Below are positions 7,652 through 64,000 of a DNA stretch of 64,000 nucleotides, piece by piece. Every line of letters starts with the position of its first letter. The stretch's first letter is position 1. The stretch covers positions 12,028,001 through 12,092,000 of the forward strand of contig OZ024744.1 in assembly GCA_964016885.1 (NCBI GenBank), written 5' to 3'. The notes below the pieces were generated by a model. That model was not told the DNA's origin. It worked only from the letters and a program-made list of their open reading frames with translations, and made no database searches. Source of the stretch: Eledone cirrhosa (taxonomy: Eukaryota). Position numbers and translations under genes: made by a program.

Positions 7652-7757
7652 TAAAATGTTAAAGGGAGAATGTGACCATCTCACACCAGCCACACATCTT
7701 TTGGAGAAACGTAGGGAACTTGCAGAGGTTGAACAAGTTCTTGCTGTCCAAAAAGAG
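7652..7757 (+). CDS. CCDC42: CCDC42/CFAP73-family coiled-coil protein, exon A (106 nt)
   Basis: Polypyrimidine tract plus TAG acceptor (AG 7650-7651) and GAG|GTAATA donor. Encodes KMLKGECDHLTPATHLLEKRRELAEVEQVLAVQKE, matching the DHLTPATRLLEKRRE motif of CCDC42 homologs. Joins exon B in frame. Confidence 0.88.
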
Positions 7758-7762
7758 GTAAT

Positions 7763-10700
7763 ATAATAATAATAATAATGAAATTATTGTGTAAAGTGCT
7801 CAGGTGCACTACAACTCGTCAAAGGTGTATGTATAGTACATAGAATAATACACAAATGTCAGGGAAGTGAATAGTGTATGAGTCATGGTATACATGTGTG
7901 TATGTGTATGGAGGGGGAACATTAGCTGTAGTGTTGCGGATCTCGGGAAGCATGGAGGCCTTAAAGGATGCAGTGTCTCGACAGCTAACAACTGATGCAG
8001 GAAGTTTGTTCCATGCTTCAGCAACTCTGAGCGTGAAAAAATGTTTCCGAAAGTCATGGGAACTGTGCTGTTTTCTGACTTTGTGGGCATGTCCATGTGT
8101 GTTAGACACATGGAGATCAAAAAGGTGCTCAGGGTTGTTGTTGGCAAGATGGTTAATAATTTTGTGGGTGTTTACCAAGTCAGTTGCCAGGTGTCGGAGC
8201 TTCAATGTATCCATGCCCAGAAAAGCAAGGCGCTCAGAGTATGGTAGATACCTGATGGAGGGTATTCGCTTGGTTTCACGTCTCTGAACAGTTTCCAGGC
8301 GATCAATGTTCTGAGCAAGATAGGGGTTCCAGACTGGTGATGCAAATTCTAAGTGTGGCCGCACCATAGCCATAAATAGATATCTGGAGAGCGGCTGACA
8401 AAGGACTTGCTGAGTGATGCTAGGACACCCTTGGCCCTCTTGACAATTTTAGTGACGTGCTTTGTCCAACGCAAATCGCTGCTGACCGTAATACCCAGGT
8501 CACGTTCACAAGAAGACTTCTTGATATTAGTGCTGTGGAGGGAGTATGTGGACGCTGGGTTTTTACTCCCAAAATGCATGGTGGTGCACTTGTACACAGC
8601 TAGCTTGAGTTTCCAGTCTGAGATCCATTATTGCATTGTGTCCAGGTCAGACTGCAAGCAAGATCTATAGTGTTCAGGATATGTCCTTTTTATCTCAAGG
8701 TACAGCTTGATGTCATCTGCGTACTTTAGTGCCGTGGCATTCTTTAAGTTGGCATCTATCATCATCATCATCCTCACCACTTTACGTCCGTTCTTCCACG
8801 CTAGCATGGGTTAGACGGGTTGTCCTGTTGTGGGCAGTGTCTGTTCGGCTGACCATGCCTTGCTCATACAGGAACTGATTTGGCTTGATTTCTACAGCTT
8901 GATGCCCTTCCTAACACCAACCTCATTTACAGTGAGTGCTGGGTGCTTTTTCGTGGCGCCTACGCATCCACTTTACAGTGGGGGCTGGGGGCTTTTTTGC
9001 CGTGGCACCTCCACGACCACCTTGCAGTGGGAGGGTGTGGCGGCATATTGTCTATATGCTTCAGCTTGTACCCATGGAAGGTTGGGTACTCTGTATTACT
9101 GTGTGACGCCAGAGGTCACGGTCGTGTGTCATCGCCTTGGAGAGGTGTAATTGGGTAAGGTCGGCTTTTATCACCTCATCCCAGGTCATCTTGGGTCTCC
9201 CTACTCCGCGGTTTCCATCGACTTCTAGTGCTCTGCACCTTTTTATGCAGCTGTCATCTTTCATACGCATCACATGTCCATACCAATGCAACCGCCTCTC
9301 CTGCACACAGCATTTGATTCCTCTTATGCTCAGTCTCTCTCTCAATTCATTTATGCTTTGTCAGTCGCGTATATTACTATTACACATCCATCAGAGCATG
9401 CAGGCTTCGTTTCTCTCTAATCTACGTAAGTCACCTTCAGCGCCCAGGTCTCACTACCATGTAACATTGCTGTTCGGATACACGCATCATACAGTCTGCC
9501 TTTCATTTTGAGGGAGAAGCGTTTTGCAGCTAGCAGTGGCAGTAGTTCCCTGAACTTCTTCCATCCCATTCTTACCCTAGTTATTGTACTTTCTGAACAC
9601 CCACCTCCGCTGCTAATTCAGTCACCTAGATAGCAGAAGCTGTCTACTGTCTCTACAGAGCCCTCCCAGAGATTGGTGGTACTTGTTTCCTGTGGCTGTT
9701 TGCTGCTTGCTGTCCCAGTACAGCTGCTGCATGTGAAGCCTACATTCTTAATTAAGCTTCCTGAGATCCCACTACATCTCTTGTGTACCCATTGTTTACA
9801 TTTGGGGCAGAGAATGGAGTTCCTACCTACACCTTTCCTACATACTGAGCAAGGCCATTTCCCTGAGGGGATATGGGTTCTGTTTTCTCGTCTACTTACG
9901 AGGACCTTAGTCTTTGTCATGTTGACTTTGAGACCCTTTCTTTCTAGTCCCTGCTTCCAAGTTTGGAATTTCTTCTATAAGTGCGAGGTCATCAGCATAC
10001 AGGAGTTTCCATGGGCATCCGATCTTAAACTCCTCCGTTATTGCCTACAGGACTATGATGAACAGGAGAGGGCTAAGAACAGAGCCCTGGTGGACACCAA
10101 CCTGTACGCTAAATTCCTCGCTATACTCATTGCTAATCCTAACTTTGCTGACTGCTCCCCTATACATGGCTTGTACAGCTTTCACAAGCCATTCATCTAC
10201 TCCTAGTTTTCTAAGAGCCCACCAGATTACAGCACGTGGAACTGTGTCAAAGGCTTTCTCGAGATCGACAAATGCCAGGTAGAGTGGCTTACTTTTAGCT
10301 AGGTACTTTTCCTGTAACTGCCTCACGAAGAAGAGGGCATCAGTGGTGCCTCTTCCTGGTACAAACCCAAATTGCATCTCATCTAGTTTCACCCAGTCCC
10401 TAATCAACTGTGCTATAACTCTTTCTGTTACTTTCATGATCTGGTCCATCAGCTTTAAACCTCTATAGTTTCCTCTATCGAGTGCATCACCTTTACCTTT
10501 GTAGCAGTTGACAATGATGCTACTGCACCAATCTTTTGTTATGACACCTTCTAGTATTACCTGGTTAACAATACGTGTTGTTATAGTGTGACCTACAGAC
10601 CCAGATGCCTTCAGCATCTTGGCAGCTATACCCGATGGACCGGTTGCCTTCCCCATCTTAATATCTTTGATTGCCTTACTTACTACGCTGCTGCTGACTT

Positions 10701-13386
10701 GTACTGATGGCCCCTCTATAGGGTCTACTTGGGGTAGGGTCTCTTCTTCCCATGCATTCTCCTCATTTAGTAATCTATCATAATGACTCTTCCATGCATC
10801 TTTCTTCTCAGCACTTGTGAGGGCAAACTCACCTTTATCATTCCGGATACACTTCTCTCCAGTGACATCACAATTCTCTCTGACACACTGCCTCGCAATC
10901 TTGAACACCTCCTGTTTCTGGTACTCACGTTGCAAAACATGCTTGAATTTTCTATCCTCTGCTTTCCTCCTAGCTAAGTATACTTGTTGCCTAGCTTCCC
11001 TCTTGGTCTCTATGTAATGTACCATGCTTCCCCCGTTCTTCCATTCTTTCCATGCCTGTCTCTTGGCCTTAACTGCCTCATCTACTTTATTGTTCCACCA
11101 CCAAGTCACTCTCCTCCTGCTTGTGGTCTTACTCCAGCTACAGATCTCATCCGTCACCTCTAGTAAGTTTTTTTTAGGAACTCCCAGTGCTCTTCTACAT
11201 TGAATGTCTCTATCTATGTCATTAATATATGCCACAAACAAAAAGGGGCCAAGAACAGATCCCTGTGGTACACCAGATGACATCTCATATGGTGAGGAAT
11301 GCTGTCCCAGAACCGTGACTACCTCTCTTCGATTGAGAATGAAAGACTTCAACCAGTTAAAAAGACCATCCTTCACACCCATTGCAGAGAGTTTTGCTGT
11401 AAGCCTTTGGTGTGGCACAGAATTGAAGGCTTTAGCAAAGTCAAGGTAAACAACATCCACCCATGAGCCGCCATCAGTGATCCGGGTGATGTCCTCAAGA
11501 AACTCTATAAGTTGATCACAGCAGCTGCAGTTGGGGATAAATCCAAATTGCGAGGGCCGGATAAGACTGTGAGAGCTCCAGAAGTTCCAAAGTGTTTCTC
11601 TGACACAGGATTCCATCAGTTTGGCAATGCAACTAGTAAGACTGACTGGACGATAGTTCACAGGTGATGTGCGGTCACTCTTTTTGAACAGAGGAATGAC
11701 ACTGGCAGTTTTCCACTGTTCTGGAGTAGCACTGTTGTTCAGACAGAATTGGAAGAAGCGTGATAACTGGTGCAGAAGGAAGTACCCACCACATTTAAGA
11801 AGCAGGTACATAACACCATCAAGACCAGGAGAGGCATGGTTGCATTTATTTTTTAGGTGACATCGCAGCATTGCAGGTGTAAATTCCATGGTTGTAATAG
11901 AGTCCGGTGTCATAGGTGGTGGAGATGGTACACTCTGGTCTTCAATAGTGAAAATGCCTGCACAGCATTCAGCAATGAGCTCTGCGCATTCCTTGGGGTC
12001 GTCAGTAACCTGGCTTGTGTGGGGATTGCGAAGAGGACCAACTGGAGAGTGAGGCCTCTGCTTTGAGTGAACATACTTCCAGAAAACTTTACTGTCAGGG
12101 CTAGTTGCTATGCGCTGCTCAAATTGAAGCACTGCCTTTTTTGTCACCTGTTTGAGGTGGTTGGACGATTTATTTTGCCTCTTCCTATTGATGTCTGATT
12201 TGTGAAGTTTGTACTCACGTTCAGCATTGCGCCGTTCTTTTCTGGCAAGACGGACTGCTGCAGTCTCCCAAATTGCACTTTTGGGATGTTTTTTCTGCTT
12301 ACGTGGCACTGATGCTGCACATGCTGTCCATATTGAGCTCAGGATGTTCTGGAGTACAGTGTTGACATCTCCAGAGTCGTAGAACTCAAACAAGTTTGGC
12401 CGTTGCAACTCGGTGCAGTAACAGTTCCAGTCTGCTTTATTCCAGTCAAAGTGAGCAGTTTGGAGATGGTTGTGGTTCTTGTTATTGTCCATGAGGGATA
12501 GATTGACAATGATCATAGCATGATCAGAGTCACCTAAAGGTTCCTCAGCAGTAACACAAATGACCGTTTCAGGAGTAGTGGTGAAGAGTAGGTCCAAAGT
12601 GTTGTCACCTCTTGTCGGGGAGGTGACCACTTGGGACCAACTCAAGTCCAGCACTAGCTCAAGGAAGTCATTTGCACTTGGTGGCCAATGAAAGGTTTCC
12701 TAATCAATCTCAGGGTGATTGAAGTCTCCTGCAATGAAAACATAAGTGGCTGTCTTCCTGGCAGCAGCTCTGAGGATATCACAAAGTTGAGTGTCCTGAT
12801 GGTAATTTGGTGGACGGTAAACGACTCCAAGTAGCAGTGTTGACATGGTCATACGTATATCGCAGAAAAAAAGTTCCTGCTGTGATTGGTTCAAATCAAC
12901 ACAAGGAATTGCCGACAGATTTGACCGAACGTAGACCATTACACCACCACCACCGCGATTAATGCGGTCTTTACGAAACAGGTTGTAGCCAATCATGCTG
13001 AAAACCCCATCACAGAGTAAGGGATGTGCCCAAGTTTCCATGACTGTAATGAAGTCAGGGTTGATACTTTTGACGTAGGAGTCAAAAAGATGAATCTTAT
13101 TGCATAGACTACGTGCATTCAAGGACAACAATTTGTTCCTTGATTCCAGTCTATGATTATGTGCAGGGGATGGCAGGTTGTTCTGATTTAGTTTCCCAGA
13201 GTTTTTTCAGTTTCTTTATTGTCAGTTGTTGAGGGTACAGTGTTTTCAGACCAGCTGGTGTCTCTTTTCCATGTTTCGCCAGCTTTAACAAACTTCCATA
13301 TCTGCCCATCATCTGAAGATTTCATGTTCGGCCGAGTGGCGGTTTAAGGAAGCTGCAGCACGCAACTTTGGGCGGACATCAGGCGA
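7763..13386 (-). mobile_element. CR1-clade LINE, 5'-truncated in ORF1 and interrupted by an RTE insertion
   Basis: Endonuclease (SLNARSL, ETW, GGGVM, YRPP, AGDFN, SDH) and RT (NYRPVSLTS, YLDFAKAF, GVPQGSVLGP, then ANLKNATALKYADD after the insertion). CR1-type C-terminus (VRPHLEFASPVWNP, HFFTLRVAEAWNKLP). (ATT)n tail at 7763-7779. Carries a stop at 12700-12702 and frameshifts in the 3' part. Confidence 0.92.
8760..11211 (-). mobile_element. 5'-truncated, decayed RTE LINE nested in CR1 RT
   Basis: Colinear with the RTE at ~3015-5586 (VTWWWN, FVDLEKAFD, GVHQGSVLSP, YADD, PHD finger, WYGHV). (GAT)n tail at 8760-8772. Flanked by direct repeat ATCTAT at 8754-8759 and 11212-11217. Confidence 0.93.
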
Positions 13387-16300
13387 ACAACAAGGCAGTG
13401 CTAGACATCACCATCATGCTACAACAAGGCAGTGCTAGACATCATCATCATGCTACAACAAGGCAGTGCTAGACATCACCATCATGCTACAACAAGGCAG
13501 TGCTAGACATCACCATCATGCTACAACAAGGCAGTGCTAGACATCATCATCATCATCATGCTACAACAAGACAGTGTTAGACATCATCACCATGCTACAA
13601 CAAGGCAGTGCTAGACATCATCATCACCATCATGCTACAACAAGGCAGTGCTAGACATCATCGCCATCATGCTACAACAAGGCAGTGCTAGACATCATCA
13701 TCATCATCATGCTACAACAAGGCAGTGCTAGACATCACCATCATGCTACAACAAGGCAGTGCTACACATCATCATCATCATCATGCTACAACAAGGCAGT
13801 GTTAGACATCATCATCATCATCATGCTACAACAAGGCAGTGCTAGACATCACCATCATGCTACAACAAGGCAGTGCTAGACATCATCATCATGCTTCAAC
13901 AAGGCAGTGCTAGACATCATCATCATCATCATGCTACAACAAGGCAGTGCTAGACATCATCATCATGTTCATGCTACAACAAGGCAGTGCTAGACATCAC
14001 CATCATGCTACAACAAGGCAGTGCTAGACATCATCATCATGCTACAACAAGGCAGTGCTAGACATCATCACCATCATGCTACAACAAGGCAGTGCTAAAC
14101 ATCATCATCATGCTACAACAAGGCAGTGCTAGACATCATCATCACCATCATGCTACAACAAGGCAGTGCTAGACATCATCATCATGCTACAACAAGGCAG
14201 GGCTAGACATCATCATCATCATCATGCTACAACAAGGCAGTGCTAGACATCATCATCATCATCATGCTACAACAAAGCAGTGCTAGACATCATCATCACC
14301 ATCATGCTACAACATGGCAGTGCTAGACATCACCATCATGCTACAACAAGGCAGTGCTAGACATCATCATCATGCTACAACATGGCAGTGCTAGACATCA
14401 TCACCATCATGCTACAACAAGGCAGTGCTAGACATCATCACCATCATGGTACAACAAGGCAGTGCTAAACATCATCACCAACATTCTACAACAAGGCAGT
14501 GCTAGACATCATCATCACCATCATGCTACAACAAGGCAGTGCTAGACATCACCATCATGCTACAACAAGGCAGTGCCAGACATCATCACCATCATGCTAC
14601 AACATGGCAGTGCTAGACATCACATCATGCTACAACATGGCAGTGCTAGACATCATCATCATCATGCTACAACAAGGCAGTGCTAGACATCACATCATGC
14701 TACAACATGGCAGTGCTAGACATCATCATCATCATGCTACAACAATGCAGTGCTAGACATCATCATCACCATGCTACAACAAGGCAGTGCTAGACATCAT
14801 TACCATCATGCTACAACAAGGCAGTGCTAGACATCATCACCATCATGCTACAACATGGCAGTGCTAGACATCATCATCATCATGCTACAACAAGGCAGTG
14901 CTAGACATCACATCATGCTACAACATGGCAATGCTAGACATCATCATCATCATGCTACAACAATGCAGTGCTAGACATCATCATCACCATGCTACAACAA
15001 GGCAGTTCTAGACATCATTACCATCATGCTACAACAAGGCAGTGCTAGACATCACATCATGCTACAACATGGCAGTGCTAGACATCATCATCATCATGCT
15101 ACAACAATGCAGTGCTAGACATCATCATCACCATGCTACAACAAGCCAGTGCTAGACATCATCATCATGCTACAACAAGGCAGTGCTAGACATCATCATC
15201 ATGCTACAACAAGGCAGTGCTAAACATCATCACCACCATGCTACAACATGGCAGTGCTAGACATCATCACCATCATGCTACAACAACGTAGTGCTAGACA
15301 TCGTCACCATCATGCTACAACAAGGCAGTGCTAGACATCATCATCACCATGCTACAACAAGGCAGTGCTAGACATCATCATCATCATGCAACAACAAGGC
15401 AGTGCTAGACATCACCATCATGCTACAATAGGCAGTGCTAGACATCACATCATGCTACAACATGGCAGTGCTAGACATCATCATCATCATGCTACAACAA
15501 GGCAGTGCTAAACATCATCATCACCATCATGCTACAACAAGGCAGTGCTAAACATCATCATCACCATCATGCTACAACAAGGCAGTGCTAAACATCATCA
15601 TCACCATCATGCTACAACAAGGCAGTGCTAGACATCATCATCACCATCATGCTACAACAAGGCAGTGCTAAACATCATCATCATCATCATGCTACAACAA
15701 GGCAGTGCTAAACATCATCATCACCATCATGCTACAACAAGGCAGTGCTAGACATCATCATCACTATCATGCTACAACAAGGCAGTGCTAGACATCATCA
15801 TCATGCTATAACAAGGCAGTGCTAGACATCATCATCATCATGCTACAACAAGGCAGTGCTAAACATCATCATCACCATCATGCTACAACAAGGCAGTGCT
15901 AGACATCATCACCATCATGCTACAACAAGGTAGTGCTAGACATCAACATCATCATCATGCTACAACAAGGCAGTGCTAGACATCATCATCATGCTACAAC
16001 AAGGCAGTGCTAGACATCATCATCATGCTACAACAAGGCAGTGCTAGACATCATCACCACCATGCTACAACATGGCAGTGCTAGACATCATCACCATCAT
16101 GCTACAACAACGTAGTGCTAGACATCATTACCATCATGCTACAACAAGGCAGTGCTAGACATCATCATCACCATGCTACAACAAGGCAGTGCTAGACATC
16201 ATCATCATCATGCTACAACAAGGCAGTGCTAGACATCACCATCTTGCTACAACATGGCAGTGCTAGACATCATCATCATGCTACTGCAAGGCAGTGCTAA

Positions 16301-19300
16301 ACATCATCATCACCATCATGTTACAACAAGGCAGTGCTAGACATCATCATCACCATCATGCTACAACAAGGCAGTGCTAGACATCACCATCTTGCTACAA
16401 CAAGGCATTGCTAAACATCATCACCATCATGCTACAACAAGGCAGTGCTAAACATCATCATCACCATCATGTTACAACAAGGCAGTGCTAGACATCATCA
16501 TCACCATCATGCTACAACAAGGCAGTGCTAGACATCATCACCATCATGCTACACCATGGCAGTGCTAGACATCATCATCATCATGATACAACAAGGCAGT
16601 TCTAGACATCACATCATGCTACAACATGGCAGTGATAGACATCATCATCATCATCATGCTACAACAAGGCAGTTCTAGACATCACCATCATGCTACAAGG
16701 CAGTGCTAGACATCATCACCATCATGCTACAACAAGGCAGTGCTAGACATCATCATCACCATCATGCTACAACATGGTAGTGCTAGACATCAACATCATG
16801 CTACAACAAGGCAATGCTAGACATCATAACCACCATGCTACAACAAGGCAGTGCTAGACATCATCATCATCATGCTACAACAAGGCAGTGCTAAACATCA
16901 TCATCACCATCATGTTACAACAAGGCAGTGCTAGACATCATCATCACCATCATGCTATAACAAGGCAGTGCTAGACATCATCACCATCATGCTACAACAA
17001 GGCAGTGCTAGACATCATCACCATCATGCTACAACATGGCAGTGCTAGACATCATCATCATCATGATACAACAAGGCATTTCTAGACATCACATCATGCT
17101 ACAACATGGCAGTGATAGACATCATCATCATCATCATGCTACAACAAGGCAGTTCTAGACATCACCATCATGCTACAACAAGGCAGTGCTAGACATCATC
17201 ACCATCATGCTACAACAAGGCAGCGCTAGACATCATCATCACCATCATGCTACAACATGGTAGTGCTAGACATCAACATCATGCTACAACAAGGCAATGC
17301 TAGACATCATAACCACCATGCTACAACAAGGCAGTGCTAGACATCATCATCATCATCATGCTACAACAAGGCAGTGCTAGACATCACCATCATGCTATAA
17401 CAAGGCAGTGCTACATATCATCACCATCATGCTAAGACAAGGCAGTGCTAGACATCATCATCATCATGCTACAACAAGGCAGTGCTAGACATCATCATCA
17501 CCATCATGCTACAACATGGCAGTGCTAGACATCATAATCATGCTACAACAAGGCAGTGCTAGACATCATCACCACCATGCTACAACAAGGCAGTGCTAGA
17601 CATCACCATCATGCTACAACAAGGCAGTGCTAGACATCATCACCATCATGCTACAACAAGGCAGTGCTAGACATCACCATCATGCTATAACAAGGCAGTG
17701 CTAAACATCATCATCACCATCATGCTACAACATGGCAGTGCTAAACATCACCATCACTATCATGCTACAACAAGGCAGTGCTAGACATCATCATCACCAT
17801 CATTCTACAACAAGGCAGTGCTAGACATCATCATCACCATCATGCTACAACAAGGCAGTGCTAGATATCATCATCATCATCATGCTACAACAAGGCAGTG
17901 CTAGACATCATCATCATCATGCTACAACAAGGCAGTGCTAGACATCATCATCACCATCATGCTACAACAAGGCACTGCTAGACATCATCATCACCATCAT
18001 GCTACAACAAGACAGTGTTAGACATCATCATCATGCTACAACAAGGCAATGCTAGACATCATCATCACCATCATGCTACAACAAGGCATTGATAGACATC
18101 ACCATCATGCTACAACAAGGCAGTGCTAGACATCATCATCACCATGCTACAACAAGGCAGTGCTAGACATCATCATCATCATGTTAGAACAAGGCAGTGC
18201 TAGACATCACCATCATGCTACAACATGGCAGTGCTAGACATCACATCATGCTACAACATGGCAGTGCTAGACATCATCATCATCATCATGCTACAACAAG
18301 GCAGTGCTAAACATCATCATCACCATCATGCTACAACAAGGCAGTGCTAAACATCATCATCACCATTATGCTACAACAAGCCAGTGCTAAACATCATCAT
18401 CATCATCAAGCTACAACAAGGCAGTGTTAGACATCATCATCACCATCATGCTGCAACAAGGCAGTGCTAGACATCATCATCATGCTACAACAAGGCAGTG
18501 CTAGACATCATCATCATCATGCTACAACAAGGCATTGCTAAACATCATCACCATCATGCTACAACAAGACAGTGCTAAACATCGTCATCACCATCATGTT
18601 ACAACAAGGCAGTGCTAGACATCATCATCACCATCATGCTATAACAAGGCAGTGCTAGACATCATCACCATCATGCTACAACAAGGCAGTGCTAGACATC
18701 GTCACCATCATGCTACAACATGGCAGTGCTAGACATCATCATCATCATGATACAACAAGGCAGTGCTAGACATCACATCATGCTACAACATGGCAGTGAT
18801 AGACATCATCATCATCATCATGCTACAACAAGGCAGTTCTAGACATCACCATCATGCTACAACAAGGCGGTGCTAGACATCATCACCATCATGCTACAAC
18901 AAGGCAGTGCTAGACATCATCATCATCATCATGCTACAACAAGGTAGTGCTAGACATCAACATCATCATCATGCTACAAGAAGCCAGTGCTAGACATCAT
19001 CATCATGCTACAACAAGGCAGTGCTAGACATCATCATCATGCTACAACAAGGCAGTGCTAGACATCATCACCATCATGCTACAACAAGGCAGTACTAGAC
19101 ATCATCATCACCATCATGCTACAACAAGGCAGTGCTAGACATCATCATCACCATCATGCCACAACATGGTAGTGCTAGACATCAACATCACCATCATGCT
19201 ACAACAAGGCAGTGCTAGACATCATCATCATCATGCTACAACAAGGCAGTGCTAGACATCATCACCATCATGCTAAGACAAGGCAGTGCTAGACATCATC

Positions 19301-39129: not shown

Positions 39130-40260
39130 GCTTTCTTTATTAATCACAAGGGTTTACATAAAGTAGACATTAAGGACAGTACAGGACAATACAGGACGGT
39201 ACAAATGGGCATTTCTGCGTGTAAAAAAAACAAGAATGGAGTATGTAACAAAAAAAGGAAACAATGAAAAAATTCCCCAATAGGAGGGAGTCCTCCGAGG
39301 GTCGCTCGTGGAGAAAGCCCACAAGAAAAGCCACAGTTACCCTGACCGCTAGGGAAAATGCCCTCTTCCAGTTTTCCTCCTACGATGCTACAGGCACACC
39401 CTCAGGGTAGGCCCATTCACACAGGCGATTCTTGCCTCTCTTACCCATCTTTTAACATACTCTACCCTGATTTTCCTTTTCTGGTGAAACCTGAAAAAGT
39501 TAAGGAGGGCGTCACAGAAGAGGAAAGTTCCCGTCTTCAACCCTTTCAGACGTGTCCACCATATGATCTCTTTTACCATGGCCACCAGGCAGATAAAAAT
39601 TCCCTACCCTTCTCGGCTAAAGGAAGGCGGCAGGGCAATCTTCACGATGGACTCAGCTGATAGCTGGATCCGTCCTACACGTGACAGCAAGTGTTCGATA
39701 TAAACCCACAAGTCAGCAATGCTCAGATACTGGACGAGTGCATGCAGGACGGTTTCATCCCCTGCACGAATCTCGGACATGCCCGGCTGACGGCACTTCC
39801 ATGCCTGTAGAGTTTATCCCAAACTGGCTAGGCTCCTCGGTAGCACTGCCAAGCCAGGGATTTCTGGAAGTTGTCCATGGGCCCCGGCCCGAAAGTTCTC
39901 CCAAAGAGATTGCCTAGTTGATTTTCGTCGACGCCCAGAGTCTCCCCAAGCATGTTGTCGCTCTTTCCCTCCACTAACCCTCTATAGAATGCCAAGGTGG
40001 AGTTTCCAGCAATTGTATTGCCTAACTGGTCAAGGGCTGTAAGCGCCTGAAGACATTCCAGTCTCCAAGTGCTTCCTCTCGGACTTTGCTTGACCTAGGA
40101 CTGCAGCTCCGCCAAGGAGACAAGCTGGGGAAACATATGTCTAGCAAAGGGCGACCACACATGATCATCATCGAGGAAGAGGTGGAGATGTCGTAGCCTG
40201 AGCATGATGTCTGCGCATCATCAGCCACGGCATGCCCAGCCCTCCATGTAGTGGGTGTTT
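39130..40260 (-). mobile_element. 5'-truncated, decayed L1/Tx1-like LINE, related to 1-1124
   Basis: Minus-strand translation gives HGGLGMPWLMMR...VWSP and AMVKEIIWWTRLKGLKTGTFL, matching ORF 4..885. Contains frameshifts. Ends AATAAAGAAAGC at 39141-39130. Confidence 0.87.
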
Positions 40261-40620
40261 ACACTTTACAGAGTGGACTTGGTGTTTTTGTCATGACACC
40301 TACATGACCACTTTACCATGTGTACAGGGTGCTTTTTGTTGTGACACCTACATGACCACTTTAGAGTGTGGACTGGGGGATTTTGTGATACCAACACAAC
40401 TTTATAGGTAAAGGGTGATGTGCATAGAGGTGAGGGGATGTAAGGATGTGGGGGTGTAAATTGGATTAAAAAGTACCTACTTGGTGTATGTTTGAGTCAG
40501 GTCTTCTGTATTACTGCATAACGCCAAAGATCTTGATACTGTTTCATCATCTTTGTGAAGTGGATGTGTGCAAGGTCAGTATTTATCACCTGATCCCAAG
40601 TGCTCCTAGGTCTTCCTACA
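40261..40620 (-). mobile_element. RTE LINE 3' fragment (ORF2 end plus 3'UTR)
   Basis: Minus strand encodes VGRPRSTWDQVINTDLAHIH...DLWRYAVIQKT, versus IGRPRKTWDELINSDITHLH...DLWRYSVTEKT in the full copy. About three 48-bp motif copies at 40261-40400. Confidence 0.85.
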
Positions 40621-40623
40621 GTG

Positions 40624-40750
40624 ACTTTATTTATCAACCTTAAAGGGATAAAATGCGAAGTCGACCTAGATAGGATTGGAACTCAGAACATTAACATTCA
40701 AAGAGGAAACATAAAACATTCTATGTGACCATCTAATGACGGTCTATAAC
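40624..40750 (-). mobile_element. tRNA-derived SINE remnant whose 5' head runs into satellite C
   Basis: Minus strand has a pol III B-box-like GTTCCAATCC (40682-40673) followed by AGGTCGACTTCGCATTTTATCCCTTTAAGGTTGATAAAT. This resembles the central domain of octopus/Meta-type SINEs as I recall it. Confidence 0.65.
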
Positions 40751-49700: not shown

Positions 49701-52700
49701 ATTTGTCCATCTAATGACGGTCTATAACATAAAACATTCTATTTCACCATCTAATGACTGTCTATAACATAAAACATTCTATTTGACAATCTAATGACTG
49801 TCTATAACATAAAACATTCTAATTGACCATCGAATGACTGTCTATAACATTAAACATTCTATTTCACCATCTAATGACTGTCTATAACATAAAACATTCT
49901 ATTTGTCCATCTAATCTCGGTCTATAACATAAAACATTCTATGTGACCATCTAATGACAGTCTATAACATAAAACATTCTATTTGACCATCTAATGACTC
50001 TCTATAACATAAAACATTCTATTTGACCATCTAATGACTGTCTATAACATAAAACATTCTATGTGACCATCTAATGACAGTCTATAACATAAAACATTCT
50101 ATTTGACCATCAAATGAATGTCTATAACATAAAACATTCTATTTGTCCATCTAATGACTGTCTATAACATGAAACATTCTATTTGTCCATCTAATGACGG
50201 TCTATAACATTAAACATTCTATTTCACCATCTAATGACTGTCTATAACATAAAACATTCTATTTGACAATCTAATGACTGTCTATAACATACAACATTCT
50301 ATTTGACCATCTAATGACTGTCTATAACATAAAACATTCTATTTGACAAGCTAATGACTGTCTATAACATAAAACATTCTATTTGACCATCTAATGACTG
50401 TCTATAACATAAAACATTCTATTTGACCATCTAATGACTATCTATAACATAGAACATTCTATTTGACAATCTAATGACAGTCTATAACATAAAACAACTA
50501 TTTGTCCATCTAATGACGGTCTATAACATAAAACATTCTACGTGACCATCTAATGACTCTCTATAACATAAAACATTCTATGTGACCATCTAATGACTGT
50601 CTATGACATAAGACATTCTATTTGTCCATCTAATGACCGTCTATAACATAACACATTATATTTGTCCATCTAATGACTCTCTATAACATAAAACATTCTA
50701 TTTGTCCATCTAATGACGGTCTATAACATAAAACATTCTATTTGTCCATCTAATGACGGTCTATAACATAAAACATTCTATTTGACCATCTAATGACTGT
50801 CTATAACATAAAACTTTCTATGTGACCATCTAATGACTGTCTATAACATAAAACATTCTATTTGTCCATGTAATGACTGTCTATAACATAAAACATTCTA
50901 TTTGTCCATCTAATGACGGCCTATAACATTAAACATTCTATTTCACCATCTAATGACTGTCTATAGCATAAAACATTCTATTTGACAATCTAATGACTGT
51001 CTATAACATAAAACATTCTATTTGACCATCTAACGACTGTCTATAACATAAAACATTCTATTTGACCATCTAATGACGATCTATAACATAAAACATTCTA
51101 TTTGACCATCTAATGACGGTCTATAACATAAAACATTCTAATTGACCATCTAATGACTCTCTATAACATAAAACATTCTATTTGACCATCTAATGACTGT
51201 CTATAACATAAAACATTCTATGTGACCATCTAATGACAGTCTATAACATAAAACATTCTATTTGACCATCAAATGACTGTCTATAACATAAAACATTCTA
51301 TTTGACCATCTAATGACTGTCTATAACATGAAGGATTCTATGTGACGATCTAATCACTGTCTATAACATGAAACATTCTATTTGTCTATCTAATGACTGT
51401 CTATAACATGAAACATTCTATTTGTCCATCTAATGACGGTCTATAACATTAAACATTCTATTTCACCATCTAATGACAGTCTATAACATAAAACATTCTA
51501 ATTGACCATCGAATGTTGTCTATAACATAAGACATTCTATTTGACAATCTAATGACTGTCTATAACATAAAACATTCTATTTGACCATCTAATGACTGTC
51601 TATAACATAACACATTCTATTTCACCATCTAATGACTGTCTAGAACGTAAAACATTCTATTTAACGATGTAATGACGGTATATAACATAACACATTCTAT
51701 TTGTCCATCTAATGACGGTCTATAACATAAAACATTCTATGTGACCATCTAATGACATTCTATGTGACCATCTAATGACATTCTATAACATAAAACATTC
51801 CATTTGTCCATCTAATGACTGTCTATAACATAAAACATTCTATTTGTCCATCTAATCTCGGTCTATAACATGAAACATTCAATTTGTCCATCTAATGACG
51901 GTCTATAACATAAAACATTCTATTTCACCATCTAATGACTGTCTATAACATAAAACATTCTATTTGACAATCTAATGACTGTCTATAACATAAAACATTC
52001 TAATTGACCATCGAATGACTGTCTATAACATTAAACATTCTATTTCACCATCTAATGACTGTCTATAACATAAAACATTCTATTTGTCCATCTAATCTCG
52101 GTCTATAACATAAAACATTCTATGTGACCATCTAATGACAGTCTATAACATAAAACATTCTATTTGACCATCTAATGACTCTCTATAACATAAAACATTC
52201 TATTTGACCATCTAATGACTGTCTATAACATAAAACATTCTATGTGACCATCTAATGACAGTCTATAACATAAAACATTCTATTTGACCATCAAATGAAT
52301 GTCTATAACATAAAACATTCTATTTGTCCATCTAATGACTGTCTATAACATGAAACATTCTATTTGTCTATCTAATGGCGGTCTATAACATTAAACATTC
52401 TATTTCACCATCTAATGACTGTCTATAACATAAAACATTCTATTTGACAATCTAATGACTGTCTATAACATACAACATTCTATTTGACCATCTAATGACT
52501 GTCTATAACCTAAAACATTCTATTTGACAAGCTAATGACTGTCTATAACATAAAACATTCTATTTGACCATCTAATGACTGTCTATAACATAAAACATTC
52601 TATTTGACCATCTAATGACTATCTATAACATAGAACATTCTATTTGACAATCTAATGACAGTCTATAACATAAAACAACTATTTGTCCATCTAATGACGG

Positions 52701-55700
52701 TCTATAACATAAAACATTCTACGTGACCATCTAATGACTCTCTATAACAGAAAACATTCTATGTGACCATCTAATGACTGTCTATGACATAAGACATTCT
52801 ATTTGTCCATCCAATGACCGTCTATAACATAACACATTCTATTTGTCCATCTAATGACTCTCTATAACATAAAACATTCTATTTGACCATCTAATGACTG
52901 TCTATAACATAAAACATTCTATGTGACCATCTAATGACTGTCTATAACATAAAACATTCTATTTGTCCATGTAATGACTGTCTATAACATAAAACATTCT
53001 ATTTGTCCATCTAATGACGGTCTATAACATGAAACATTCTATTTGACCATATAATGACTGTCTATAACATAAAACATTCTATGTGACTATCTAATGACGG
53101 TCTATAACATAAAACATCTATTTGTCCATCTAATGACTGTCTATAACATAAAACGTTCTATTTGTCCATCTAATCTCGGTCAATAACATAAAACATTCTA
53201 TTTGACCATCTAATGACTCTCTATAACATAAAACATTCTATGTGACCATCTAATGACTGTCTATAACATAAAACATTCTATTTGACCATATAATGACTTT
53301 TATAACATAAACCATTCTATGTGACCATCTAATGACAGTCTATAACATAAAACATTCTATGTGACCATCTAATGACGGTCTATAACATAAAACATTCTAT
53401 TTGTCCATCTAATGACTGTCTATAACATAAAATATACTATTTGTCCATCTAATGACGGTCTATAACATAAAACATTCTATTTGACCATCTAATGACTCTC
53501 TATAACATAAAACATTCTATTTGACCATCTAATGACTGTCTATAACATGAAGGATTCTATGTGACGATCTAATCACTGTCTATAACATGAAACATTCTAT
53601 TTGTCCATCTAATGACTGTCTATAACATGAAACATTCAATTTGTCCATCTAATGACGGTCTATAACATAAAACATTCTATTTCACCATCTAATGACTGTC
53701 TATAACATAAAACATTCTATTTGACAATCTAATGACTGTCTATAACATAAAACATTCTAATTGACCATCGAATGACTGTCTATAACATAAGACATTCTAT
53801 TTGACAATCTAATAACTGTCTATAACATAAAACATTCTATTTGACCATCTAATGACTGTCTATAACATAAAACATTCTATGTGACCATCTAATGACAGTC
53901 TATAACATAAAACATTCTATTTGACCATCAAATGACTCTCTATAACATAAAACGTTCTATTTGACCATCTAATCACTGTCTTTAACATAAAACATTCTAT
54001 TTGTCCATCTAATGACTGTCTATAACATAAAACATTCTATTTGACCATCTAATGACGGTCTATAACATAAAACATTCTATGTGACCATCTAATGACATTC
54101 TATGTGACCATCTAATGACATTCTATAACATAAAACATTCCATTTGTCCATCTAATGACTGTCTATAACATAAAACATTCTATTTGTCCATCTAATCTCG
54201 GTCTATAACATGAAACATTCAATTTGTCCATCTAATGACGGTCTATAACATAAAACATTCTATTTCACCATCTAATGACTGTCTATAACATAAAACATTC
54301 TATTTGACAATCTAATGACTGTCTATAACATAAAACATTCTAATTGACCATCGAATGACTGTCTATAACATTAAACATTCTATTTCACCATCTAATGACT
54401 GTCTATAACATAAAACATTCTATTTGTCCATCTAATCTCGGTCTATAACATAAAACATTCTATGTGACCATCTAATGACAGTCTATAACATAAAACATTC
54501 TATTTGACCATCTAATGACTCTCTATAACATAAAACATTCTATTTGACCATCTAATGACTGTCTATAACATAAAACATTCTATGTGACCATCTAATGACA
54601 GTCTATAACATAAAACATTCTATTTGACCATCAAATGAATGTCTATAACATAAAACATTCTATTTGTCCATCTAATGACTGTCTATAACATGAAACATTC
54701 TATTTGTCTATCTAATGGCGGTCTATAACATTAAACATTCTATTTCACCATCTAATGACTGTCTATAACATAAAACATTCTATTTGACAATCTAATGACT
54801 GTCTATAACATACAACATTCTATTTGACCATCTAATGACTGTCTATAACCTAAAACATTCTATTTGACAAGCTAATGACTGTCTATAACATAAAACATTC
54901 TATTTGACCATCTAATGACTGTCTATAACATAAAACATTCTATTTGACCATCTAATGACTATCTATAACATAGAACATTCTATTTGACAATCTAATGACA
55001 GTCTATAACATAAAACAACTATTTGTCCATCTAATGACGGTCTATAACATAAAACATTCTACGTGACCATCTAATGACTCTCTATAACAGAAAACATTCT
55101 ATGTGACCATCTAATGACTGTCTATGACATAAGACATTCTATTTGTCCATCCAATGACCGTCTATAACATAACACATTCTATTTGTCCATCTAATGACTC
55201 TCTATAACATAAAACATTCTATTTGACCATCTAATGACTGTCTATAACATAAAACATTCTATGTGACCATCTAATGACTGTCTATAACATAAAACATTCT
55301 ATTTGTCCATGTAATGACTGTCTATAACATAAAACATTCTATTTGTCCATCTAATGACGGTCTATAACATGAAACATTCTATTTGACCATATAATGACTG
55401 TCTATAACATAAAACATTCTATGTGACTATCTAATGACGGTCTATAACATAAAACATCTATTTGTCCATCTAATGACTGTCTATAACATAAAACGTTCTA
55501 TTTGTCCATCTAATCTCGGTCAATAACATAAAACATTCTATTTGACCATCTAATGACTCTCTATAACATAAAACATTCTATGTGACCATCTAATGACTGT
55601 CTATAACATAAAACATTCTATTTGACCATATAATGACTTTTATAACATAAACCATTCTATGTGACCATCTAATGACAGTCTATAACATAAAACATTCTAT

Positions 55701-58700
55701 GTGACCATCTAATGACGGTCTATAACATAAAACATTCTATTTGTCCATCTAATGACTGTCTATAACATAAAATATACTATTTGTCCATCTAATGACGGTC
55801 TATAACATAAAACATTCTATTTGACCATCTAATGACTCTCTATAACATAAAACATTCTATTTGACCATCTAATGACTGTCTATAACATGAAGGATTCTAT
55901 GTGACGATCTAATCACTGTCTATAACATGAAACATTCTATTTGTCCATCTAATGACTGTCTATAACATGAAACATTCAATTTGTCCATCTAATGACGGTC
56001 TATAACATAAAACATTCTATTTCACCATCTAATGACTGTCTATAACATAAAACATTCTATTTGACAATCTAATGACTGTCTATAACATAAAACATTCTAA
56101 TTGACCATCGAATGACTGTCTATAACATAAGACATTCTATTTGACAATCTAATAACTGTCTATAACATAAAACATTCTATTTGACCATCTAATGACTGTC
56201 TATAACATAAAACATTCTATGTGACCATCTAATGACAGTCTATAACATAAAACATTCTATTTGACCATCAAATGACTCTCTATAACATAAAACGTTCTAT
56301 TTGACCATCTAATCACTGTCTTTAACATAAAACATTCTATTTGTCCATCTAATGACTGTCTATAACATAAAACATTCTATTTGACCATCTAATGACGGTC
56401 TATAACATAAAACATTCTATGTGACCATCTAATGACAGTCTATAACATAAAACATTCTATGTGACCATCTAATGACAGTCTATAACATAAAACATTCTAT
56501 TTGACAATATAATGACTTTTATAGCATAAAACATTTTATGTGACCATCTAATGACAGTCTATAACATAAAACATTCTATGTGACCATCTAATGACGGTCT
56601 ATAACATAAAACATTCTATTTGTCCATCTAATGACTGTCTATAACATAAAACATACTATTTGTCCATCTAATGACGGTCTATAACATAAAACATTCTATT
56701 TGACCATCTAATGACTCTCTATAACATAAAACATTCTATTTGACCATCTAATGACTGTCTATAACATGAAGGATTCTATGTGACGATCTAATCTCTGTCT
56801 ATAACATGAAACATTCTATTTGTCCATCTAATGACTGTCTATAACATGAAACGTTCAATTTGTCCATCTAATGACGGTCTATAACATAAAACATTCTATT
56901 TCACCATCTAATGACTGTCTATAACATAAAACATTCTATTTGACAATCTAATGACTGTCTATAACATAAAACATTCTAATTGACCATCGAATGACTGTCT
57001 ATAACATAAAACGTTCTATTTGTCCATCTAATCTCGGTCAATAACATAAAACATTCTATTTGACCATCTAATGACTCTCTATAACATAAAACATTCTATG
57101 TGACCATCTAATGACTGTCTATAACATAAAACATTCTATTTGACCATATAATGACTTTTATAACATAAACCATTCTATGTGACCATCTAATGACAGTCTA
57201 TAACATAAAACATTCTATGTGACCATCTAATGACGGTCTATAACATAAAACATTCTATTTGTCCATCTAATGACTGTCTATAACATAAAATATACTATTT
57301 GTCCATCTAATGACGGTCTATAACATAAAACATTCTATTTGACCATCTAATGACTCTCTATAACATAAAACATTCTATTTGACCATCTAATGACTGTCTA
57401 TAACATGAAGGATTCTATGTGACGATCTAATCACTGTCTATAACATGAAACATTCTATTTGTCCATCTAATGACTGTCTATAACATGAAACATTCAATTT
57501 GTCCATCTAATGACGGTCTATAACATAAAACATTCTATTTCACCATCTAATGACTGTCTATAACATAAAACATTCTATTTGACAATCTAATGACTGTCTA
57601 TAACATAAAACATTCTAATTGACCATCGAATGACTGTCTATAACATAAGACATTCTATTTGACAATCTAATAACTGTCTATAACATAAAACATTCTATTT
57701 GACCATCTAATGACTGTCTATAACATAAAACATTCTATGTGACCATCTAATGACAGTCTATAACATAAAACATTCTATTTGACCATCAAATGACTCTCTA
57801 TAACATAAAACGTTCTATTTGACCATCTAATCACTGTCTTTAACATAAAACATTCTATTTGTCCATCTAATGACTGTCTATAACATAAAACATTCTATTT
57901 GACCATCTAATGACGGTCTATAACATAAAACATTCTATGTGACCATCTAATGACATTCTATGTGACCATCTAATGACATTCTATAACATAAAACATTCCA
58001 TTTGTCCATCTAATGACTGTCTATAACATAAAACATTCTATTTGTCCATCTAATCTCGGTCTATAACATGAAACATTCAATTTGTCCATCTAATGACGGT
58101 CTATAACATAAAACATTCTATTTCACCATCTAATGACTGTCTATAACATAAAACATTCTATTTGACAATCTAATGACTGTCTATAACATAAAACATTCTA
58201 ATTGACCATCGAATGACTGTCTATAACATTAAACATTCTATTTCACCATCTAATGACTGTCTATAACATAAAACATTCTATTTGTCCATCTAATCTCGGT
58301 CTATAACATAAAACATTCTATGTGACCATCTAATGACAGTCTATAACATAAAACATTCTATTTGACCATCTAATGACTCTCTATAACATAAAACATTCTA
58401 TTTGACCATCTAATGACTGTCTATAACATAAAACATTCTATGTGACCATCTAATGACAGTCTATAACATAAAACATTCTATTTGACCATCAAATGAATGT
58501 CTATAACATAAAACATTCTATTTGTCCATCTAATGACTGTCTATAACATGAAACATTCTATTTGTCTATCTAATGGCGGTCTATAACATTAAACATTCTA
58601 TTTCACCATCTAATGACTGTCTATAACATAAAACATTCTATTTGACAATCTAATGACTGTCTATAACATACAACATTCTATTTGACCATCTAATGACTGT

Positions 58701-61700
58701 CTATAACCTAAAACATTCTATTTGACAAGCTAATGACTGTCTATAACATAAAACATTCTATTTGACCATCTAATGACTGTCTATAACATAAAACATTCTA
58801 TTTGACCATCTAATGACTATCTATAACATAGAACATTCTATTTGACAATCTAATGACAGTCTATAACATAAAACAACTATTTGTCCATCTAATGACGGTC
58901 TATAACATAAAACATTCTACGTGACCATCTAATGACTCTCTATAACAGAAAACATTCTATGTGACCATCTAATGACTGTCTATGACATAAGACATTCTAT
59001 TTGTCCATCCAATGACCGTCTATAACATAACACATTCTATTTGTCCATCTAATGACTCTCTATAACATAAAACATTCTATTTGACCATCTAATGACTGTC
59101 TATAACATAAAACATTCTATGTGACCATCTAATGACTGTCTATAACATAAAACATTCTATTTGTCCATGTAATGACTGTCTATAACATAAAACATTCTAT
59201 TTGTCCATCTAATGACGGTCTATAACATGAAACATTCTATTTGACCATATAATGACTGTCTATAACATAAAACATTCTATGTGACTATCTAATGACGGTC
59301 TATAACATAAAACATCTATTTGTCCATCTAATGACTGTCTATAACATAAAACGTTCTATTTGTCCATCTAATCTCGGTCAATAACATAAAACATTCTATT
59401 TGACCATCTAATGACTCTCTATAACATAAAACATTCTATGTGACCATCTAATGACTGTCTATAACATAAAACATTCTATTTGACCATATAATGACTTTTA
59501 TAACATAAACCATTCTATGTGACCATCTAATGACAGTCTATAACATAAAACATTCTATGTGACCATCTAATGACGGTCTATAACATAAAACATTCTATTT
59601 GTCCATCTAATGACTGTCTATAACATAAAATATACTATTTGTCCATCTAATGACGGTCTATAACATAAAACATTCTATTTGACCATCTAATGACTCTCTA
59701 TAACATAAAACATTCTATTTGACCATCTAATGACTGTCTATAACATGAAGGATTCTATGTGACGATCTAATCACTGTCTATAACATGAAACATTCTATTT
59801 GTCCATCTAATGACTGTCTATAACATGAAACATTCAATTTGTCCATCTAATGACGGTCTATAACATAAAACATTCTATTTCACCATCTAATGACTGTCTA
59901 TAACATAAAACATTCTATTTGACAATCTAATGACTGTCTATAACATAAAACATTCTAATTGACCATCGAATGACTGTCTATAACATAAGACATTCTATTT
60001 GACAATCTAATAACTGTCTATAACATAAAACATTCTATTTGACCATCTAATGACTGTCTATAACATAAAACATTCTATGTGACCATCTAATGACAGTCTA
60101 TAACATAAAACATTCTATTTGACCATCAAATGACTCTCTATAACATAAAACGTTCTATTTGACCATCTAATCACTGTCTTTAACATAAAACATTCTATTT
60201 GTCCATCTAATGACTGTCTATAACATAAAACATTCTATTTGACCATCTAATGACGGTCTATAACATAAAACATTCTATGTGACCATCTAATGACAGTCTA
60301 TAACATAAAACATTCTATGTGACCATCTAATGACAGTCTATAACATAAAACATTCTATTTGACAATATAATGACTTTTATAGCATAAAACATTTTATGTG
60401 ACCATCTAATGACAGTCTATAACATAAAACATTCTATGTGACCATCTAATGACGGTCTATAACATAAAACATTCTATTTGTCCATCTAATGACTGTCTAT
60501 AACATAAAACATACTATTTGTCCATCTAATGACGGTCTATAACATAAAACATTCTATTTGACCATCTAATGACTCTCTATAACATAAAACATTCTATTTG
60601 ACCATCTAATGACTGTCTATAACATGAAGGATTCTATGTGACGATCTAATCTCTGTCTATAACATGAAACATTCTATTTGTCCATCTAATGACTGTCTAT
60701 AACATGAAACGTTCAATTTGTCCATCTAATGACGGTCTATAACATAAAACATTCTATTTCACCATCTAATGACTGTCTATAACATAAAACATTCTATTTG
60801 ACAATCTAATGACTGTCTATAACATAAAACATTCTAATTGACCATCGAATGACTGTCTATAACATAAAACATTCTATGTGACCATCTAATGACAGTCTAT
60901 AACATAAAACATTCTATTTGACCATCAAATGACTGTCTATAACATAAAACGTTCTATTTGACCATCTAATCACTGTCTTTAACATAAAACATTCTATGTG
61001 ACCATCTAATGACAGTCTATAACATATAACATTCTATGTGACCATCTAATAACAGTCTATAACATAAAACATTCTATTTGACCATCTAATAACCGTCTAT
61101 AACATAAAATATTCTATTTGACCATCTAATGACTGTCTATAACATAGAAATTTCTATGTGACCATCTAATGATAGTCTATAATATAAAACATTCTATTTG
61201 ACCACAAATGAATGTCTATAACATAAAACATTCTATTTGACCATCTAATCGCTGTCTATAACATGAAGCATTCTATGTGACGATCTAATCACTGTCTATA
61301 ACATGAAACATTCTATTTGTCCATCTAATGACTGTCTATAACATGAAATATTCTATTTGTCCATCTAATGACGGTCTATAACATTAAACATTCTATTTCA
61401 CCATGTAATGACTGTCTATAACATAAAACATTCTATTTGACAATCTAATGACTGTCTATAACATAAAACATTCTATTTGAGCATCTAATGACTGTCTATA
61501 ACATAAAACATTCTATTTGACAATCTAATGACTCTCTATAACATAAAACATTCTATTTGACCATCTAATGACTATCTATAACATAAAACATTCTATTTGA
61601 CAATCTAATGACAGTCTATAACATAACACATTCTATTTCACCATCTAATGACTGTCTAGAACGTAAAACATTCTATGTAACCATGTAATGACGGTATATA

Positions 61701-64000
61701 ACATAACACATTCTATTTAACCATCTAATGACGGTCTATAACATAAAGCAACTATTTGTCCATCTAATGACGGTCTATAACATAAAACATTCTACGTGAC
61801 CATCTAATGACTGTCTATGACATAAAACATTCTATTTGTCCATCTAATGATCGTCTATAACATAACACATTATATTTGTCCATCTAATGACGGTCTATAA
61901 CATAAAACATTCTATTTGTCCATCTAATGACTCTCTATAACATAAAACATTCTATTTGTCCATCTAATGACGGTCTATAACATAAAACATGCTATTTGTC
62001 CATCTAATGACGGTCTATAACATAAAACATTCTATTTGACCATCTAATGACTGTCCATAACATAAAACATTCTATGTGACCATCTAATGACTGTCTATAA
62101 CATAAAACATTCTATTTGTCCTTTTAATGACTGTCTATAACATAGAACATTCTATTTGTCCATCTAATGACTGTCTATAACATAGAACATTCTATTTGTC
62201 CATCTAATGACTGTCTATAACATAGAACATTCTATGTGACCATCTAATGACTATCTATAACATAATACATTCTATTTGTCCATCTAATGACTGTCTATAA
62301 CATGAAACATTCTATTTGTCCATCTAATGACGGTCTATAACATTAAACATTCTATTTCACCATCTAATGACTGTCTATAGCATAAAACATTCTATTTGAC
62401 AATCTAATGATTGTCAATAACATAAAACATTCTATTTGACCATCTAACGACTGTCTATAACATAAAACATTCTATTTGACCATCTAATGACGATCTATAA
62501 CATAAAACATTCTATTTGACCATCTAATGACGGTCTATAACATAAAACATTCTAATTGACCATCTAATGACTCTCTATAACATAAAACATTCTATTTGAC
62601 CATCTAATGACTGTCTATAACATAAAACAATCTATGTGACCATCTAATGACAGTCTATAACATAAAACATTCTATTTGACCATCAAATGACTGTCTATAA
62701 CATAAAACATTCTATTTGACCGTCTAATGACTGTCTATAACATGAAGGATTCTATGTGACGATCTAATCACTGTCTATAACATGAAACATTCTATTTGTC
62801 TATCTAATGACTGTCTATAACATGAAACATTCTATTTGTCCATCTAATGACGGTCTATAACATTAAACATTCTATTTCACCATCTAATGACTGTCTATAA
62901 CATAACACATTCTATTTGACCATCTAATGACTGTCTAGAACGTAAAACATTCTATTTAACGATGTAATGACGGTATATAACATAACACATTCTATTTGTC
63001 CATCTAATGACGGTCTATAACATAAAACATTCTATGTGACCATCTAATGACATTCTATAACATAAAACATTCTATTTGTCCATCTAATGACTGTCTATAA
63101 CATAAAACATTCTATTTGTCTATCTAATCTCGGTCTATAACATAAAACATTCTATGTGACCATCTAATGACAGTCTATAACATAAAACATTCTATTTGAC
63201 CATCTAATGACTCTCTATAACATAAAACATTCTATTTGACCATCTAGTGAATGTCTATAACATAAAACATTCTATGTGACCATCTAATGACAGTCTATAA
63301 CATAAAACATTCTATTTGACCATCAAATGAATGTCTATAACATAAAACATTCTATTTGTCCATCTAATGACTGTCTATAACATGAAACATTCTATTTGTC
63401 CATCTAATGACGGTCTATAACATTAAACATTCTATTTCACCATCTAATGACTGTCTATAACATAAAACATTCTATTTGACAATCTAATGACTGTCTATAA
63501 CATACAACATTCTATTTGACCATCTAATGACTGTCTATAACATATAACATTCTATTTGACAAGCTAATGACTGTCTATAACATAAAACATTCTATTTGAC
63601 CATCTAATGACTGTCTATAACATAAAACATTCTATTTGACCATCTAATGACTATCTATAACATAGAACATTCTATCTGACAATCTAATGACAGTCTATAA
63701 CATAAAACAACTATTTGTCCATCTAATGACGGTCTATAACATAAAACATTCTACGTGACCATCTAATGACTCTCTATAACATAAAACATTCTATGTGACC
63801 ATCTAATGACTGTCTATGACATAAGACATTCTATTTGTCCATCTAATGACCGTCTATAACATAACACATTATATTTGTCCATCTAATGACTCTCTATAAC
63901 ATAAAACATTCTATTTGTCCATCTAATGACGGTCTATAACATAAAACATTCTATTTGTCCATCTAATGACGGTCTATAACATAAAACATTCTATTTGTCC
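40707..64000. repeat. Satellite C: >23 kb, 40-bp unit ATAAAACATTCTATTTGACCATCTAATGACTGTCTATAAC (~580 units, runs off window)
   Basis: Uninterrupted array read directly, with block duplications of 2340 and 3858 bp. Confidence 0.98.

Follow-up and report, generated by a model that had tools for sequence, protein, structure and literature searches.

Does a gene for a small ciliary protein become giant because of what it encodes or because of the chromosome on which it lies? Satellite-filled giant introns in flagellar genes of the fly Y are usually associated with the absence of recombination on that chromosome, and the reason for them is still debated. In the present study, we examined a stretch of 64,000 nucleotides from the octopod Eledone cirrhosa (contig C28:12028001-12092000, hereafter the window), in which an earlier reading of the letters alone (the original prediction) had placed three exons of a CFAP73/CCDC42 gene separated by satellite-filled introns. 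We found that the gene is intact and spans 373,967 bp, of which the window covers a piece, and that it probably lies on the Z sex chromosome. Its likeness to the giant genes of the fly Y is likely due to this chromosome, and not to gigantism of cilia genes as a class. Positions beyond the ends of the window continue its numbering and are called extended coordinates.

Results

Using the Octopus orthologue P0007 as the query, we mapped nine coding exons in order and in phase between extended coordinates -22505 and 351461 (Table 1). The coding total of 933 nt gives 310 amino acids with a single terminal stop, so that 99.75% of the span is intron. All eight introns have GT-AG ends, and their lengths from first to last are 30,104; 30,350; 749; 267,588; 12,814; 10,178; 1,760 and 19,491 bp. 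One of the eight exceeds 100 kb and none is megabase-sized, the largest being 0.27 Mb. The median intron in O. vulgaris is reported as 2,467 bp (PMC10700109). The three exons of the window (A, B and C) splice in frame as predicted, with exact coordinates, joined phases and GT-AG ends. The protein aligns to P0007 without gaps at 72.9% identity and to two cuttlefish-type proteins at 59-59.5%, and the Octopus protein reaches 61% against the same two. This similar divergence indicates no faster change and no sign of decay in the octopod gene, and together with the intact frame it ruled out a pseudogene.

The assignment of the exons to the CFAP73/CCDC42 family also held. Exon B scores 31.4 bits against DUF4200 (PF13863), whose curated cut-off is 29.7, and exon C continues the profile, placing the domain near the N terminus of the predicted protein. 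The nearest named proteins are Octopus entries called 'CCDC42 homolog'. P0007 matches the solved chains of CFAP73 at 1e-44 (human) and 1e-41 (Chlamydomonas) and those of CFAP100 at 6e-5 or weaker; the resemblance over the full length of about 300 residues is to CFAP73 and not to CFAP100, which is longer. The MIA complex, made up of FAP73 and FAP100, regulates inner dynein I1 (PMC3628515), and loss of CCDC42 leads to deformed sperm flagella in the mouse (bioRxiv 2022.01.10.475757). In domain, length and sequence the octopod protein agrees with CFAP73/FAP73 and its vertebrate paralogue CCDC42; the protein is ordinary and only the size of its gene is unusual.

Two related loci were seen elsewhere in the assembly. 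An intronless, divergent DUF4200 gene of 283 amino acids on C4 at about 27.13 Mb (L003:1462-2310), 24% identical to the CFAP73/CCDC42 protein, is likely an autosomal retrocopy of it. Autosomal retrocopies are typical for sex-linked testis genes. A two-exon DUF4200 match on the unplaced contig C527 (L001, L002) is probably CFAP100, the partner in the MIA complex.

The introns consist largely of tandem repeats. Arrays of at least 5 kb make up 295,908 of the 373,034 intronic bases (79%), and a single intron, between exons C and D, contributes 263 of these 296 kb. In that intron 263,254 of 267,588 bp lie in such arrays, 98% of it being two tandem arrays: satellite C with 215,285 bp and a 45-bp satellite with 47,969 bp. 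The original prediction of more than 23 kb of satellite after exon C was therefore true but an underestimate. Its estimate for the A-B intron (30,350 bp, filled mainly by one satellite) was accurate, as satellite A measures 23,734 bp both by Tandem Repeats Finder and in the raw sequence. Two of its generalizations stood only in part. A dominant repeat of its own was found in four of the eight introns (A-B, B-C, C-D and E-F), but the other four are only 8-16% tandem repeat. Likewise, a short stretch between the last tandem repeat and the acceptor was seen at six of the eight (46-161 bp, predicted about 50-160), but it is 478 bp at exon D and 1,075 bp at the last exon.

Table 1. Coordinates of the gene, its exons and the repeats of its introns (extended coordinates outside 1 to 64000)
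Feature	Position	Strand	Remarks
CFAP73/CCDC42 gene, part	1..64000	+	window covers piece of 373,967-bp gene
Exon 1	-22505..-22453	+	mapped with P0007
Exon A (coding exon 2)	7652..7757	+	106 nt; phase 2 to phase 0; 31/35 residues identical to P0007
Exon B (coding exon 3)	38108..38212	+	105 nt; DUF4200 positions 21-55, E 2.6e-7
Exon C (coding exon 4)	38962..39047	+	86 nt; DUF4200 positions 56-84; donor of 267,588-bp intron
Exon D	306636..306807	+	mapped with P0007
Exon E	319622..319696	+	mapped with P0007
Exon F	329875..330032	+	mapped with P0007
Exon G	331793..331886	+	mapped with P0007
Exon H (last)	351378..351461	+	mapped with P0007
LINE (long interspersed nuclear element), endonuclease, reverse transcriptase and PHD-like finger	2107..5184	+	one in-frame stop; in intron 1
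48-bp minisatellite	6631..7595		ends 56 bp short of exon A acceptor
LINE remnants, reverse transcriptase and endonuclease	10048..13386	-	run straight into satellite A
Satellite A	13387..37120		34-40-bp unit, ~635 copies, higher-order period ~2.3-2.6 kb
31-bp minisatellite	37240..37951		ends 156 bp short of exon B acceptor
(GTA)n array	38278..38915		638 of the 749 bp of the B-C intron
SINE-like (short interspersed nuclear element) dispersed repeat	40624..40707	+	3' part replaced by start of satellite C; 74-76% to several copies nearby
Satellite C	40708..64000, on to 255992		40-bp unit, 215 kb, ~5,390 copies, higher-order periods 2.3-8.7 kb

By exact word, arrays A and C are private to their introns: all 524 exact genome-wide matches of a 31-base word of satellite C lie inside the C-D intron, and all 235 matches of a 27-base word of satellite A lie inside the A-B intron. 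The 48-bp minisatellite before exon A is not private, its unit being present on other chromosomes as well (L072, L096). Within the arrays exact repeats reach 3,881 bp, which together with the higher-order periods of 2.3-8.7 kb points to recent duplication of blocks. Judged from their flanks, satellites A and D appear to have been born in place from retroelement sequence. Satellite A starts at the end of the LINE remnant and stops within the (CAT)n tail belonging to a second dispersed element; in its unit, LINE sequence and (CAT)n tail appear joined. Both flanks of satellite D are consecutive parts of one old element that is also present on C3, and two of its units beat 297 of 300 shuffles against the C3 copy. 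The SINE label of the dispersed repeat beside satellite C is a putative one.

We considered whether the giant intron could have been inflated or misjoined in the assembly, or whether the two halves might not form one transcription unit (a silent, split or trans-spliced gene). Near-identical higher-order blocks are hard to assemble, and no transcript of the gene was seen. Against this, the 464 kb of assembly around and across the gene contain no N, the nearest assembly gap (extended -114696..-114497, L175) lying 92 kb upstream of exon 1; the exons keep order and phase; and 74% of the 401-mers of satellite C are distinct. The summed depth of the satellite C unit was 33,000-76,000 in runs X1 and X4, as compared with 3-12 for exon D in X1; this depth is not a copy number and comes from one sample, possibly that of the assembly itself, but at about ten thousand times exon D it is of the order expected for thousands of copies. 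X1 also spans the exon-intron borders as DNA. In runs X2 and X5 the unit had no cover, but most of exon D was uncovered too, so that these runs are uninformative on the age of the satellite. Introns of more than 100 kb are reported for vertebrate giant genes such as dystrophin (PMC11207136), and splicing in cis of introns of several hundred kilobases is known to be feasible; the octopod gene differs from these in that its giant intron is 98% two tandem arrays and its protein has only 310 residues. Taken together, we regard an assembly or transcription-unit artefact as very improbable.

A probable identity of the chromosome came from its genes. C28 measures 136.5 Mb and comes after C1-C27, which are otherwise of falling size apart from one small piece. 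It gave matches to all eight Z marker families searched (AMN, FHIP1A, DDOST, SMARCB1, SLC5A9-like, SPAG9-type WD40_2, RAB1 and RAB9), which are published as cephalopod Z genes (PMC10925132 Table S6; bioRxiv 2024.12.09.627507); orthology was checked for FHIP1A and RAB1 and assumed for the paralogue-rich WD40_2, SSF and RAB9 matches, a single-exon Rab being taken as RAB9. Because of these eight matches, C28 is likely the Z chromosome of the ZZ/ZO system described for cephalopods (PMC10925132). Contig depth, being low and flat, does not bear on this assignment. In O. vulgaris the orthologues of the CFAP73/CCDC42 gene and of FHIP1A were each placed on a contig 58,760,710 bases long, so the Z linkage of the gene is probably old.

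This chromosome is unusually rich in satellite. In 10-kb samples, scored for tandem repeats only and placed at round positions fixed beforehand, not random and denser on the left arm of C28, pure satellite was found in 19 of 40 on C28 and in 4 of 52 elsewhere (Fisher p 1.8e-5), counts that leave out one sample from the unplaced C29 and six gene-targeted stretches. The mean array share was 50% on C28 and 10% elsewhere, and about 47% when weighted by length over three parts of C28, in which it amounted to 66% (1-28 Mb), 19% (32-96 Mb) and 81% (100-134 Mb). Most pure-satellite samples of C28 carry a unit of their own, of 15-420 bp. Large arrays flank the CFAP73/CCDC42 gene on both sides, with shares of 41% and 72% in the immediate flanks. 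Outside arrays, C28 amounts to about 68-73 Mb, a size near that of the Octopus Z (59 Mb in O. vulgaris). Published cephalopod Z chromosomes measure about 55-59 Mb and are characterized as rich in LINEs, whereas C28 is about half satellite.

Some of the sampled arrays may be very large. A common 23-bp unit was found at 11.0 and 11.77-11.85 Mb of C28 (L133 and L182-L189), just upstream of the gene, where one array may exceed 800 kb. The samples at 130 and 134 Mb (L070 and L149) are filled by a 16-bp telomere-like unit, which suggests a multi-megabase subterminal array, and those at 1 and 4 Mb have a 48-bp unit in common.

The original prediction had linked the size of the introns with the axonemal character of the gene. 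In the controls, for which spans run between the matched exons of one domain and not over whole genes, this was not borne out. The dynein heavy-chain loci (n=20, probably including two cytoplasmic dyneins) span 2.5-33 kb, multi-exon tektins (n=5) 5-42 kb, TPH loci (n=3) 2-35 kb and chaperonin loci (n=9) 6-31 kb, and none of them lies on C28. The 28 multi-exon dynein, tektin and TPH loci are thus compact (no matched part exceeds 42 kb), and in no case is the matched domain interrupted by a gap of more than 32 kb. As a class, then, axonemal genes are not giant.

It had also been considered that satellite-filled introns might be equally common in all gene classes, but seven non-ciliary genes of C28 were compact as well, with spans of 1.4-49 kb. 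In about 127 kb of their DNA two arrays of more than 5 kb were found, one of 6.7 kb in the SLC5A9-like gene and one of 7.7 kb in intron 1 of RAB1. This comparison bears on a pure position effect, by which all genes in the satellite-rich arms of C28 would be swollen alike, whatever their function. The intronic array share of 79% is close to the 66% of the arm and stands beside 41% and 72% in the flanks of the gene, one intron gives most of this array, and both RAB1 and the SLC5A9-like gene carry intronic arrays themselves. However, RAB1 at 103.9 Mb spans only about 17 kb, though its surrounding 140 kb is only 23% large array, and the SLC5A9-like gene spans 49 kb at a distance of 250 kb from a pure-satellite sample. 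Position clearly matters and a filter by gene class is suggested, and position as the sole cause appears to us rather unlikely, if still a serious candidate.

No neighbour gene was found in the same arm: three sets of open frames taken from unique sequence (196, 110 of 243, and 242) yielded only retroelement domains or weak matches below threshold. The gap of 100 kb that separates two SSF matches on C1 and a gap of 45 kb on C4 (40 kb scanned) contained no array of at least 5 kb, the C1 pair being maybe two paralogues, and the search for the NYD-SP28 family returned single exons only.

A few control loci are irregular. N-terminal tektin exons on C3 at 287.23-287.24 Mb lie 700 kb from the C-terminal ones (287.93 Mb) and on the side opposite to that expected of a minus-strand gene, either in a misordered scaffold or as two partial copies; this tektin was counted by its C-terminal 5 kb only. 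Dynein heavy-chain matches on C19 at 6.706-6.710 and 6.807-6.811 Mb have an identical exon pattern, inverted and 100 kb apart, and are either a recent duplication or a false duplicate. Single-exon tektin matches over the whole profile (C5:121702035 and C4:9128639) are likely retrogenes.

Discussion

We tend to explain the giant gene by an expansion of satellites along the whole chromosome, whose arrays are tolerated better by this likely narrowly expressed gene than by housekeeping genes, an explanation to which we would give about an even chance. Short units would arise in place at retroelement junctions and be multiplied, and then multiplied again as blocks of 2-9 kb by unequal exchange or replication slippage, with satellites expanding all along the arms of this Z. 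The gene would be read as one transcript of 374 kb in about 2-4 hours at usual elongation rates. Splicing would proceed by exon definition, for which the 50-900 bp of ordinary intron that remain next to every exon would be enough. Such a transcript could be afforded by a gene that is required in long-lived ciliated cells and in spermatocytes. The arrays would need no function of their own, and selection on them would be confined to the removal of sense-strand processing signals.

A hint of such removal was found in satellite C, whose unit needs a single change to give AATAAA on the sense strand. This change occurs in none of 3,202 clean contexts and is the sole zero among the 24 changes at C sites, the other 23 occurring 6-328 times each; the change creating AATAAA on the opposite strand was counted 76 times. 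By rank this corresponds to about 1 in 16 to 1 in 24, so removal of sense-strand AATAAA is suggestive only. Units that seemed to carry the sense-strand change (197) proved to be mostly register shifts. Strand bias of splice motifs in the arrays was not significant, with an acceptor filter that passes 5 of the 8 true acceptors.

Several points count against this explanation. It is built on one gene, and narrow expression is taken from the family and not from the gene itself. The seven Z controls all lie outside the arm of the gene, three of them in the middle of the chromosome, which is poor in satellite, and four at 98.7-104 Mb, so that position and gene class are not separated. Copies of satellite C share descent, which weakens the AATAAA count; 7 of all 111 changes in this satellite have zero occurrences; two AATAAA are present on an altered background; and the weaker signal ATTAAA occurs 177 times. 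Donor-like motifs are absent from the four intronic arrays but also from 36 of 46 strands of sampled arrays. As for birth in place, the best of four SINE copies compared with the satellite C unit stood at 11 of 300 shuffles, and the other three were not above chance.

The proposed parallel to the giant genes of the Drosophila Y turned out closer than claimed, as the octopod gene is itself on a likely sex chromosome. Intron gigantism is described in the Y-loop fertility genes kl-3 and kl-5 (PMC6508621, PMC11207136), of which kl-3 spans at least 4.3 Mb (PMC6508621). The two systems are alike in having a sex-chromosome gene of an axonemal protein family that is more than 99% intron, with introns filled by satellite, and in the compactness of homologous genes or dynein loci on autosomes. 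They differ in that the Z occurs in both sexes, with two copies that recombine in males, whereas the Drosophila Y is male-limited and does not recombine; in size (0.37 Mb against more than 4 Mb); and in the repeats, units of 34-45 bp private to each intron against shared 5-bp satellites. As two defining features of the Drosophila genes, megabase size and a male-limited Y, are lacking, we do not file the octopod gene as a member of this group.

The same comparison bears on functional gigantism as on the Drosophila Y, with spermatocyte loops, dedicated RNA-binding proteins and a timing or gating of the sperm-tail gene. The sex-chromosome location, the flagellar family, the intron content and the satellite filling are all shared with the fly genes, and the AATAAA counts give a hint of sense-strand selection. 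In addition, loops in D. pseudoobscura are reported to follow Y linkage and not the gene (PMC6508621), which fits the compact dyneins here. However, kl-3 (4.3 Mb, PMC6508621) is about 11 times the size of the octopod gene, and five family searches gave no second Z-linked cilia gene. The arrays are moreover private and young (exact repeats to 3.9 kb), leaving little time for a dedicated binding protein to evolve, and we consider functional gigantism improbable. A bolder combination, in which the Z has more than doubled through private satellites and holds a Y-loop-like giant, seems to us doubtful; spermatocytes would then transcribe the 215-kb satellite, selection would have cleared it of poly(A) signals, and a dedicated processing programme would serve it. 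If true, this combination would show that a sex chromosome which recombines can give rise to satellite intron gigantism, and that this can happen outside insects.

As the Z recombines in males, a case on this chromosome allows sex linkage to be told apart from loss of recombination. Since satellites A and C are confined to this gene, a strand-specific probe for either reports on a single intron, which is impossible with the shared fly satellites. That a cephalopod Z may consist of satellite to about one half, most of the sampled places differing in their unit, is perhaps of greater consequence than the gene. In the literature searched, which lacks most subscription papers, no case of cephalopod satellite intron gigantism or of a satellite-rich Z was found, and the word 'satellite' is absent from the main text of two recent papers on cephalopod genomes, bioRxiv 2025.08.29.672809 and PMC13669787.

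Additional observation

On the minus strand 10 kb beyond the end of the gene (L034:6670-7674), an open frame of 335 codons without a Pfam match carries a long glutamine run.

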